DNA of 64,000 nucleotides, taken from an uncultured Lachnospiraceae bacterium (GTDB taxonomy: Bacteria; Bacillota; Clostridia; Lachnospirales; Lachnospiraceae). Shown piece after piece: positions 4,469 through 5,544 of the stretch. A model generated the notes under the pieces. That model worked only from the letters and a program-made list of their open reading frames with translations. It searched no databases and was not told where the DNA came from. The position numbers and the translations under genes were made by a program. Every line of letters starts with the position of its first letter. The stretch's first letter is position 1. Where the stretch lies: assembly GCA_902779575.1 (NCBI GenBank), contig CACZBW010000020.1:24-64023 (forward strand), in the 5' to 3' direction.

Positions 4469-4547
4469 TGAGGCCGTGAATAGTAACAATCAATGATTGT
4501 GACTAGAAATTGCTTCAAACACTGCTGGCTTTTTCAGCAAATGTATG

Positions 4548-4553
4548 TATAAT
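4548..4553 (+). promoter_or_regulatory. Possible -10 box (TATAAT) for the leader RNA / MazF-like gene
   Basis: Perfect TATAAT in AT-rich DNA ~185 nt upstream of the ORF. No convincing -35, so this is weak. Confidence 0.3.
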
Positions 4554-4591
4554 ATAGTTAGAGGACACTAGTCCTTAAAAAATATTCTTTC

Positions 4592-4612
4592 ACACTTGAA
4601 AAAGTGTTTTTT
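4592..4612 (+). terminator. Weak intrinsic-terminator-like hairpin (GNRA loop + U5) inside the leader
   Basis: ACACTT GAAA AAGTGT followed by TTTTT. The stem is AT-rich, so terminator efficiency is uncertain. Confidence 0.35.
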
Positions 4613-4676
4613 GGCCGACGAGGCCGCTTTAGAAAGAATAAATTGACCGACGAGGTCACTCTGGTTAGCCAGAGCA

Positions 4677-4707
4677 GGGTATGGTTAGCGCCGTACCCTT
4701 ATTTTTT
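4677..4707 (+). terminator. Intrinsic terminator-like hairpin just upstream of the MazF-like gene RBS
   Basis: 8-bp stem (one G.U pair), 6-nt loop, then TTATTTTTT. It ends 13 nt before AAGGAG (4721-4726). Confidence 0.55.
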
Positions 4708-4735
4708 ATCTATACTCGTTAAGGAGAACATCTGA

Positions 4736-5407
4736 TTGAAAGAATATCTTAAAGCACAAAGTAAAACTAACGAGATTATTGTTGGAAATGCTATCAGCGC
4801 AGATGAATTAGATCGCTTCTCAAAATCAGACTTCCGTTGGGCTGATAACAGAAATAAATCCTTCCAACACAGATCTGTAAAGAAGGGTGAAATCTATCAA
4901 TTTGAATTCGGCAAAAATTATATTCCGGAGATGTCTTATGAACATCGTGGGCTTGTGATAGGCGTTAAGCAGAAGTTTCTCTATGTCCTTCCTATCTTTT
5001 CTTACGATCCGCACAAGCATACAGATGTCTACCATCCTGTGGATTTTCCAACTTCCAAAAGTGATATGTTTCTTTTAAAAAGCAATGACTTCTCTTTCAT
5101 TTCGCATGATTCACTGCTAAAGCTTAACGATATAAGAACTGTGAGTATCAATCGAATTCTGTACCAACAGAGCGGACGTATCGATCCTTCTTCGGATACT
5201 TACCGGGAAATAGAGTCACTAGTTCTGCGGAAATTCTTTCCGAGTTTTTTTCATGATTATGAGAATAATAAAAAAACCTTAGCCTCTCTAAATGAACAAG
5301 TTTTATCCTTGACAGAAGATAAGACTAAACTTGAATCCGAAATCAAAAAGCTCAAATCTGAACGGGATTCCATGCATAACAAGTTGAAATCCATAACAAA
5401 TATATAA
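4736..5407 (+). CDS. MazF/PemK-fold endoribonuclease-like protein with N-terminal extension and C-terminal coiled coil (orphan toxin candidate)
   Basis: 223 codons, TTG start 9 nt after AAGGAG. VKKGEIYQFEFG..E..HRGLVIG and DSLLKLNDIRTVSINRI match the PemK/MazF signature blocks. C-terminal LASLNEQVLSLTEDKTKLESEIKKLKSERDSMHNKLK is coiled-coil-like. G+C about 30% by hand count. Confidence 0.75.
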   Translation: MKEYLKAQSKTNEIIVGNAISADELDRFSKSDFRWADNRNKSFQHRSVKKGEIYQFEFGKNYIPEMSYEHRGLVIGVKQKFLYVLPIFSYDPHKHTDVYHPVDFPTSKSDMFLLKSNDFSFISHDSLLKLNDIRTVSINRILYQQSGRIDPSSDTYREIESLVLRKFFPSFFHDYENNKKTLASLNEQVLSLTEDKTKLESEIKKLKSERDSMHNKLKSITNI

Positions 5408-5544
5408 TTCAAAATGGTACCTCCGTTCCCAGAAGTACCTTTTCTTAATCATTTATGGATTTTAACGGCAGTGTTCTCGTGTAAGAAAATTCTATGCAGT
5501 ATCGAAGACTGTCCTAAAACCCTTACAAATAGAGGATCCCATCT

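Follow-up and report, generated by a model that had tools for sequence, protein, structure and literature searches.

How is the product of a MazF/PemK-fold gene kept in check where no gene for a MazE/PemI-type antitoxin stands beside it? This question is raised by an AT-rich interval (positions 4469-5544) in a 64,000-nucleotide (nt) stretch of DNA from an uncultured Lachnospiraceae bacterium, referred to below as the window, with positions counted from its first letter. The initial annotation of the interval, made by reading the letters, had proposed that a structured, terminator-bounded RNA takes the place of a protein antitoxin. Our analysis shows that the interval contains a small mobile cassette, in which the gene follows a leader RNA whose structure is maintained by compensatory changes and which accompanies the gene in nearly all genomes compared. 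Tentatively, we regard the cassette as a type III-like toxin-antitoxin (TA) module, in which the terminated leader RNA with its two pentaloop hairpins would hold a dimeric MazF-like RNase inactive; the antitoxin activity of the RNA is what we infer from the evidence presented below.

Anatomy of the cassette

Relatives of the encoded protein were compiled by scanning one genome per GTDB species. The scan produced ~97 loci, of which 80 were fetched as genome loci. Most hosts are Lachnospiraceae; Oscillospiraceae, Ruminococcus and Erysipelotrichaceae account for some, with protein identities of 48-53%. When the region 4200-5800 was compared with the 80 loci by blastn, homology to the window was confined to positions 4504-5454 and never reached the flanks. 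Base composition also sets the region apart. The interval between the two convergent genes ending at 4468 and 5545 has a G+C content of 36.9%, against 51-53% in the flanks, and G+C at third codon positions (GC3) is 0.36 in the open reading frame (ORF) of the interval against 0.58-0.62 in two neighbouring genes. The initial estimate of ~30% G+C was too low, although the hand counts given with it (20/60, 17/60 and 36/60) are exact. Only one substantial ORF is present in 4469-5544. The frame of the cassette consists of the following features.

4504-5454, + strand: whole cassette, the block common to homologous loci, with flanking DNA unrelated between loci; G+C 36.6%
4548-4553, + strand: -10 box TATAAT, read from the sequence; (G)TATAAT occurs at the equal relative position in homologous loci
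4721-4726, + strand: Shine-Dalgarno (SD) sequence AAGGAG, with a 9-nt spacer to the TTG; conserved in homologs
4736-5407, + strand: gene of 223 amino acids (aa) with a TTG start; N-terminal helices (residues 2-38), MazF/PemK barrel (~50-150), C-terminal helices and coiled coil (154-222)
5416-5446, + strand: 3' hairpin and U-run closing the cassette, from the terminator scan

The TATAAT box, the TTG-initiated ORF and the AAGGAG 9 nt upstream of it all lie where the initial annotation had placed them. The -35 element of the promoter is weak. TTG is also the start codon in 52 of the 68 loci whose match begins at residue 1. The stem of the 3' hairpin is stronger on the - strand in the window, so the hairpin would work in both directions. 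In five of seven homologs checked, which come from other genomic contexts, the stop codon is likewise followed by an equivalent hairpin and U-run.

The leader is a structured, covarying RNA

Between the promoter and the gene lies a leader of ~147 nt, counted from the predicted 5' end of the transcript. Its minimum free energy (MFE) fold, computed for 4559-4712, contains six stem-loops, the number noticed initially, and has an energy of -59.5 kcal/mol (z = -7.1); none of 200 shuffled sequences folded as well. The elements of the leader are listed below.

4561-4576, + strand: P0, hairpin where the transcript is predicted to begin, from the MFE fold; AGAGG..CCTCT hairpins occur in many homologs, and the region is variable
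4585-4638, + strand: long-range helix from the MFE fold, UUCUUUC (4585-4591) pairing with GAAAGAA (4632-4638) and enclosing P1 and P2
4592-4612, + strand: P1, A/U-rich hairpin ACACUU/AAGUGU followed by a U-run, from the MFE fold; a weak 6-bp stem of terminator-like look
4613-4625, + strand: P2, GGCC-GACGA-GGCC hairpin with a GNRA-like pentaloop, repeat unit 1; four of four pairs with compensatory changes, 97% of cells paired
4644-4658, + strand: P3, UGACC-GACGA-GGUCA hairpin, repeat unit 2, from the covariation analysis
4659-4674, + strand: P4, CUCUGG-UUAG-CCAGAG hairpin; six of six pairs with compensatory changes in the covariance-model alignment, 96.6% of cells paired
4676-4707, + strand: P5, intrinsic terminator with a G+C-rich stem of 9-10 bp (4676-4699) and a U-tract (4700-4707), flagged by the terminator scan
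4603-4717, + strand: covariance-model match to the leader core P2-P5, the sole match in the 64-kb window (123.1 bits, E = 6e-34)

Two hairpin-and-U-tract terminators had been annotated here. The second of them corresponds to P5, which the terminator scan recovered; the first is P1, which the same scan did not flag and which is absent from some homologs (L033, L039, L041, L044 and L054). Otherwise the homologs share the order of elements: TATAAT, one or two variable 5' hairpins with a U-run, P2, a linker of ~19 nt, P3, P4, P5 with its U-tract, SD sequence and start codon. P2 and P3 are two copies of one hairpin unit, with family consensus GRYC-GACRA-GRYC for P2 and UGACC-GACRA-GGUCA for P3, and their equivalent bases (G4613 and G4645) are 32 nt apart. 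Among 71 sequences, the P2 loop is GACGA in 36 and GACAA in 28, and the P3 loop is GACGA in 53 and GACAA in 15. The end of P5 is separated from the ribosome-binding site (RBS) by 13 nt. This leaves no room for a second promoter, so the gene would be transcribed only by read-through of the terminator.

The pairing was examined in a MAFFT alignment of the 71 distinct leaders, using a hand-drawn structure of 24 pairs; the same alignment served to build a covariance model (CM). In the MAFFT alignment 95.5% of the cells are standard pairs and 15 of the 24 pairs show double changes. The CM alignment (76 distinct sequences) has 96.6% of the cells paired and compensatory changes in 17 of the 24 pairs; being fitted to the model, it leans towards the structure, a bias of which the MAFFT result is independent. 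If the pairing partners are moved by 1-3 columns, only 30-47% of the cells remain paired in the MAFFT alignment (20-48% over both alignments), and none of 500 shuffles reached the observed values in either of them. P5 is paired in 99.9% of the cells and includes five pairs with compensatory changes (one of its pairs, for example, occurs as 28 UG, 27 UA and 21 CG), while two pairs of P3 covary in distant lineages. The initially noted hairpins are therefore conserved and covary. Since the compensatory changes are accompanied by many G-U pairs, which in P5 are valid on the + strand only, the pairing is that of RNA made from the + strand, and the possibility that the inverted repeats are DNA operators was rejected on the same grounds. 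RNAalifold applied to the MAFFT alignment missed P4 because of misaligned loop columns; the hand-drawn structure and the CM alignment resolved this.

The long-range helix is less uniform. At least four pairs between the tract 5' of P1 and the P2-P3 linker are present in the MFE folds of 37 of 72 leaders. In the MFE folds of L050, L065, L074 and L075 different sequences form this helix. These different pairing sequences suggest that the helix encloses P1 and P2 as a three-way junction. The pyrimidine strand UUCUUUC resembles boxA or an anti-SD sequence, and the purine strand GAAAGAA resembles an SD sequence. We rejected the boxA-like reading of UUCUUUC, since this strand pairs with the P2-P3 linker as a covarying helix in the MFE folds.

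Where the synonymous sites of two loci differ by 52-94%, their leader cores are still 80-94% identical, which means that the leader itself is under selection. All covariation supports the terminator-on fold. No alternative (antiterminator) pairing competing with P5 was found in the RNAalifold consensus, the MFE fold of the window leader or 72 single-sequence folds, although a protein-mediated mechanism need not show one. The pentaloops appear to be of the protein-recognition type, since the P22 boxB hairpin, whose loop is GACAA, adopts a GNRA-like fold with the C flipped out and is read by a protein helix, the N peptide (PMC12550061).

The initial annotation had described the RNA as no obvious tandem array. 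This holds in so far as neither TRF nor a direct-repeat finder reported any repeat in the window, and it needs qualifying in so far as the hairpin core is present in two copies, which have only 13-17 nt in common. Comparable units are 17 nt long, in two copies with a spacing of 32 nt, in L075. ANTAR-type dual hairpins were considered and rejected, because the second hairpin here does not overlap the terminator. Rfam 15 gave no relevant match at E<=10 in window positions 4300-5700 and no relevant one at E<=1 in 13 homologous loci.

Linkage of the leader and the gene

If the leader and the gene form one functional unit, they should be found together. In 76 of the 80 genome loci the covariance model detected a single leader, immediately preceding the gene, and the P5 terminator is present in each of these 76. 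As exceptions we noted L009, L055 and L079, where the contig includes no upstream DNA, L062, where the gene is without its first ~40 codons and adjoins a transposase-like gene, and L063, where the gene is frameshifted at its 5' end. The linkage is thus near-obligate.

We also approached the linkage from the side of the RNA, using metagenome contigs pulled by an exact 22-mer of P3-P4. There were at least 120 matches, of which 68 had enough downstream DNA. In 49 of these contigs a full gene lies 77-177 nt downstream of the motif start. The gene is internally deleted, truncated or frameshifted in 13 others, and the remaining 6 have none. Where the gene is dead or missing, the leader still scores 86-128 bits, within the range of the remaining leaders. 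We encountered no intact gene that lacked a leader. Leaders without a live gene, in the absence of live genes without a leader, form the pattern expected if an antidote outlives its poison. This gives the antidote reading moderate support and not more, because mutations have a sixfold larger target in the gene (670 against 115 nt) and only leaders with an intact 22-mer could enter the sample.

Two contigs of the window's species provide related observations (L181:5780-7111 and L183:4958-5311). In L181 a DDE transposase replaces the 476-aa neighbour of the window cassette. In L183 the leader is intact, and the MazF-like gene is predicted with a length of only 117 aa.

No protein antitoxin accompanies the gene

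An all-against-all comparison of neighbouring ORFs in the 80 loci revealed no real gene common to more than nine of them; the ORF families that are more widespread are reading-frame artefacts of conserved DNA. Specifically, no adjacent MazE/PemI-type gene is conserved in these loci. One candidate is located within the leader itself.

4604-4735, + strand: 43-codon ORF running through the leader hairpins, judged non-coding; GTG start, stop directly before the TTG of the gene, no SD sequence

According to the initial annotation, the 267 nt upstream of the gene held no ORF longer than ~20 codons and none with a usable RBS. The first part does not stand in view of this ORF; the second does, as it has no SD sequence. 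It might be argued that the ORF is an overlooked small antitoxin of a classical type II system: it exists, its stop codon abuts the start codon of the toxin-fold gene, and in many Lachnospiraceae loci no stop codon interrupts the frame through P3-P5. We nevertheless judge this very improbable. Among the loci the ORF starts at different places with GTG, TTG or ATG, varies in length from 14 to 96 codons, and its end point and frame vary as well. L053-L059 and L070-L078 have a broken frame or none, and indels of 1-2 nt occur inside it, between P2 and P3. Changes in the stems are compensatory for the RNA and non-synonymous for the ORF, which moreover spans an intrinsic terminator. On this evidence the ORF was ruled out as a protein antitoxin, and the lack of a conserved small protein gene beside the homologs is in keeping with the initial annotation.

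The protein belongs to the MazF/PemK fold

The relationship of the protein to PemK is not visible from its own sequence. Searched singly against Pfam, NCBIfam and PADLOC, it matched no toxin model, defence model or NCBI family, and single-sequence searches of Pfam, NCBIfam and PDB returned coiled-coil matches only, through the last ~50 residues. A profile of close homologs (the shallow alignment A1) likewise matched only coiled coils in PDB, and PADLOC reported nothing relevant for 60 relatives. We therefore turned to the family, which comprises 869 clusters at 90% identity (E <= 1e-3), whose most informative names are 'hypothetical' and 'coiled-coil domain-containing'. When 1.84 billion representatives were searched exhaustively with a profile, 267 proteins were obtained at E <= 1e-3 with identity down to ~20%, from which a diverse alignment (A2) was derived. 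Among 60 A2 members, 44 match PF02452 (PemK_toxin) individually, with a best E-value of 1.3e-8. The best PDB sequence matches of the A2 family profile are B. subtilis EndoA/YdcE, MoxT and S. aureus MazF (E ~1e-3), and hhalign aligned the family with B. subtilis EndoA at a probability of 92% (E = 5.5e-7). The residues paired in this alignment are those of the PemK blocks that had initially been aligned by eye. The PemK relationship is thus seen only at the family level and in the fold.

Structure prediction leads to the same assignment. The AlphaFold2 (AF2) model obtained with A2 has a predicted local distance difference test (pLDDT) score of 96.8; the model obtained with the shallow A1 (pLDDT 52) was discarded. 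The model consists of two N-terminal helices (residues 2-38), a beta barrel (~50-150) and a C-terminal helix pair that ends in a helix of ~55 residues. In a Foldseek search against PDB the top 50 matches are all MazF, YdcE or MoxT, with template modelling (TM) scores of 0.63-0.81 relative to the target and E-values down to 3e-7. ToxN, CptN and AbiQ are not among these 50, no ToxN or AbiQ model of Pfam or PADLOC matched the protein or the 60 relatives, and PDB sequence searches returned no ToxN or CptN chain at E<=10. The top matches in BFVD, a viral structure library, are named PemK-like, the best of them being a full-length 266-aa 'PemK-like protein' from the gut virome (TM 0.74 relative to the query). 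The predicted structure and the profile comparisons thus show a MazF/PemK fold and, as had been proposed initially, no family match to ToxN, CptN or TenpN. A PHROG family labelled 'mazE-like' matches the region of the MazF fold (residues 50-160) and not an extra domain.

Whether the protein could be an active RNase was considered at the positions of the catalytic residues R25 and T48 of B. subtilis MazF (BsMazF). By hhalign, R71 pairs with BsMazF R25 and is invariant in 42 close relatives. The T48 position is occupied by F88, which adjoins an invariant S89. Distant relatives have T or S at the T48-equivalent position but are without the Arg equivalent, and H70 is the sole residue invariant across the whole family. 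Judging from these alignments, catalytic competence is plausible. The protein is under very strong purifying selection: for residues 2-170 the ratio of nonsynonymous to synonymous substitution rates (dN/dS) is ~0.03-0.04, with synonymous sites at or near saturation.

Several distant A2 relatives (P0186, P0196, P0199, P0202, P0210, P0219, P0227 and P0229) have an extra beta-rich C-terminal segment, '..YEYDLELIDEYGQ..K.ITYTIK'. It follows a shorter helix and stands in place of the terminal coiled coil.

The cassette moves as a unit

In the window the cassette is located between a 476-aa gene, itself following an MMPL gene, and a GNAT gene. Its neighbours in another species are proS and an SDR gene. 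A copy with 85% identity is an opposite-strand insert (moron) in the replication module of a prophage, among genes for Bro-N/ANT, VapE, PolA, Enc34 SSB and a PDDEXK nuclease, and the leader is included in the insert. In L073 the cassette adjoins a RelBE-like pair (89 and 91 aa), and the region L073:2694-3546 contains a second copy of the leader (42.8 bits), a decayed gene remnant and the RelB/RelE-like pair, followed by the intact cassette. Confined homology, differing contexts, the prophage copy with its leader and the closing 3' hairpin identify the cassette as an autonomous, moron-like unit of ~950 bp that moves horizontally, in accordance with the initial view of a horizontally acquired islet.

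Just after the 3' terminator, L001, L002, L008 and L024 have the motif TTAATCTTTTTTATA in common, which continues with GA in L001 and L024; window positions 5447-5460 show only a diverged version of it. This motif may mark the end of the mobile unit. In the loci compared around the 3' end, no recombinase travels with the cassette. A tblastn search of 50,697 GenBank phage records gave no match. A 15-mer scan of a viral collection gave 96 stretches; among the 80 loci listed and scanned, the covariance model recognised the real motif in only 2; most of the 15-mer matches were accordingly rejected as chance.

Tandem hairpins in distant relatives

To see how deep the design extends, we looked at the leaders of more distant family members. 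Upstream of a relative with 29% identity (P0186, locus L186) there are a TTGACA/TATATT promoter, a G+C-rich terminator, an RBS and an ATG. Its leader contains two tandem units of 24 nt with a spacing of 30 nt, each a hairpin with a GAAGA loop, and is still matched by the covariance model (27 bits). In L199, L200 and L201 (27-33% identity) two or three short hairpins are followed by a terminator-like hairpin. The loops are GACGA and GAUGA in L199 and GAUAA and CACGA in L201; those of L200, AAAC and UAUC, have conserved GGAA flanks. L185, which belongs to a more distant clade, has no such hairpins. These five loci give the impression, suggested by their sequences, that the RNA element and the protein diverge together, an outcome that direct RNA-protein recognition would produce.

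Relationship to known systems

As defined by Blower et al. (2012), a type III locus has its toxin gene after a terminator palindrome, tandem repeats before the palindrome and preferably a promoter (PMC3401426). The type III toxin ToxN is structurally related to Kid/MazF, the repeat arrays comprise 1.9-5.6 copies of 31-62 nt, and CptIN, which also occurs in Lachnospiraceae, has only ~2 repeats (PMC3401426). The cassette has the promoter and the terminator of such a locus, and its repeats are present in reduced form only, as two hairpin cores of 13-17 nt. The initially recognised layout of promoter, structured RNA, terminator and endoribonuclease-fold gene thus fits the published definition. Other likenesses to ToxIN, CptIN and TenpIN are the terminator directly before the toxin gene, the endoribonuclease fold of the Kid/MazF/CcdB superfamily, the lack of a protein antitoxin and the occurrence as a small autonomous module on chromosomes and mobile elements. 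However, the protein falls outside the ToxN/AbiQ, CptN and TenpN families, being of the PF02452/MazF clade with a coiled-coil tail, and the RNA is a multi-helix structure with a short duplicated hairpin unit, whereas the known RNAs are arrays of near-identical repeats of 31-62 nt.

With type II systems of the MazEF/PemIK kind (EndoA/YdcE, S. aureus MazF) the cassette shares the toxin fold (TM 0.7-0.8), the position of the catalytic Arg (R71) and the blocks G-D/E-I/V-Y..F and DSV..L.Q/D.RT.S..R. It differs in having no MazE/PemI gene, ~50 extra N-terminal and 70 extra C-terminal residues, and a Phe at the T48 position. Control differs too: in type II systems the antitoxin-toxin complex acts on a DNA operator, whereas the cassette has an RNA leader and a terminator.

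A 'pemK RNA motif' (Weinberg et al., 2017) is reportedly a structured RNA upstream of pemK genes in Firmicutes. The two arrangements agree in concept, a conserved structured RNA immediately preceding a PemK-family gene of Firmicutes; what sets them apart, as far as this comparison goes, is that the Rfam 15 covariance model of the motif matches neither the leader nor any of the 13 homologous loci, even when permissive E-values are allowed. The leader also recalls lambdoid nut sites, in which short GNRA-like pentaloop hairpins stand on the nascent transcript upstream of a terminator and the P22 boxB loop is GACAA (PMC12550061). This likeness is in the loop only: the cassette has no boxA and no N gene, its hairpins are inside a larger fold, and the host is of another phylum.

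No description of the protein family or of the RNA was found in Rfam, Pfam, NCBIfam, PADLOC or the searchable literature. On present comparisons, type III-like logic with a MazF-clade toxin and a structured RNA that is not an array would be new, and so would the well-supported RNA motif. Provided that the leader neutralises the protein, the cassette would represent a fourth type III TA family, the first with a bona fide MazF/PemK-family toxin, and an evolutionary link between type II and type III systems. RNA antitoxins would then not need to be repeat arrays, and compact multi-helix RNAs with protein-recognition pentaloops could serve as well. Gut Lachnospiraceae and their relatives commonly carry members of the family, which marks an annotation gap, as the proteins are labelled only 'hypothetical' or 'coiled-coil' and the RNA is not in Rfam.

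Proposed mechanism and its alternatives

In the mechanism that we tentatively propose, the promoter would drive a structured RNA of ~147 nt, made up of a 5' hairpin, a three-way junction, two tandem GACRA-pentaloop hairpins 32 nt apart, one further hairpin and a strong intrinsic terminator. Most transcripts would end at the terminator and accumulate as a stable small RNA. A minority would read through into the gene of the MazF/PemK-fold endoribonuclease, with the TTG start limiting translation further. The leader RNA, being abundant, would capture the protein, which probably dimerises through its C-terminal coiled coil, by means of the two pentaloop hairpins and keep it inactive, so that the RNA would stand in for the missing MazE/PemI protein. 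A drop in leader synthesis or stability, for example upon phage-induced transcription shut-off or loss of the cassette, would free the toxin to cut cellular RNA; a defence role, if there is one, could follow from this.

A number of points weigh against this proposal. Toxicity, RNA-protein binding and neutralisation are all steps that we infer, and cis-regulatory attenuators, too, typically consist of a leader with a terminator. Catalytic competence is uncertain, given F88 at the T48 position and the absence of the Arg equivalent in distant relatives. The protein lies outside the ToxN/CptN/TenpN families and no PADLOC model matches. Known type III antitoxins are near-identical tandem repeats processed by the toxin, and here only a core of 13-17 nt is duplicated. 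The excess of gene-less leaders is in part what target size (670 against 115 nt) and 22-mer ascertainment would lead one to expect. Finally, the gene was found on only 2 of 2.9 million IMG/VR contigs.

The main rival, which we hold to be rather unlikely, is that the leader is nothing more than a cis-acting attenuator or autoregulatory leader, gating transcription of the gene with no neutralisation in trans. A factor, either the encoded protein in feedback or a host protein, would bind the pentaloop hairpins and shift read-through or cleave the mRNA, and the protein would be tolerated because little of it is made. The order of promoter, structured leader, terminator and RBS is that of a classical attenuator, the leader is always in cis and immediately upstream, and two identical loops of the protein-recognition type, a constant distance apart, would suit an RNA-binding regulator that acts as a dimer; expression is in any case limited by the TTG start and the terminator. 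An attenuator is, however, at odds with the lack of a conserved antiterminator pairing, the covariation being all for the terminator-on fold, and with the intact leaders that persist beside destroyed genes. Moreover, a MazF-fold RNase without an antitoxin would still need neutralising, and the 5' hairpin together with the 3' terminator hairpin fits a stable stand-alone RNA. Even if the attenuator were correct, the cassette would provide a new, strongly covarying RNA motif with a probable protein partner, ready for work on how RNA and protein recognise each other and on how toxic genes in prophages are controlled.

The remaining alternatives concern the nature of the protein and of the signal. 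That the cassette is not a toxin system at all, but encodes a non-toxic RNA-binding protein of the MazF fold, possibly inactive (for instance, a regulator of a mobile element), under ordinary gene regulation by the leader, seems improbable to us. The Phe at the Thr48-equivalent position, the Arg that is not conserved family-wide, the long N- and C-terminal extensions absent from known MazF toxins and the missing PADLOC match would all be explained by it, and dN/dS of ~0.03 implies a maintained function. Yet R71, the counterpart of the catalytic Arg in the alignment, does not vary in the close family, and several traits are typical of toxins: expression restrained in three ways (terminator, TTG start and weak -35), frequent natural inactivation (the gene is dead or missing in 19 of 68 leader-ascertained loci), and a cassette that moves as a moron and adjoins another TA pair. 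More improbable still is an infection sensor, in which boxB-like hairpins recruit a phage N-type antiterminator or another phage RNA-binding protein. Infection would then force read-through of the terminator and turn the toxin on, giving abortive infection without any antitoxin, since the toxin is otherwise not made. This idea draws on the GACAA and GACGA loops, the former being that of P22 boxB bound by N peptide, on hairpins placed upstream of a terminator that blocks a toxin-fold gene, and on the ability of the cassette to be a prophage moron. The resemblance to boxB is nevertheless in the loops only, and the boxA-like pyrimidine tract pairs instead with the P2-P3 linker. In addition, the loops change with the encoded protein in distant relatives, which suggests that the loops are read by the protein that the cassette itself encodes. 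We know of no N-type antiterminators in Lachnospiraceae phages, which also counts against the sensor.

Other features near the cassettes

Known structured RNAs were encountered in the surroundings of some homologous cassettes. In an Erysipelotrichaceae metagenome-assembled genome, three skipping-rope RNAs of Rfam (RF02924, 50-57 bits) surround and directly flank the cassette (L070:155-251, 3528-3607 and 4644-4740). A FuFi-1 RNA (RF02986, 118 bits) is located 1.8 kb upstream of the cassette at L065:2002-2165. A 5S rRNA gene (L200:673-787) precedes by ~700 nt the distant member with 27% identity whose leader has tetraloop tandem hairpins. The window itself has a second AT-rich stretch (8401-8700, 35% G+C), which is intergenic and lies upstream of a gene for a DctP-type solute-binding protein.

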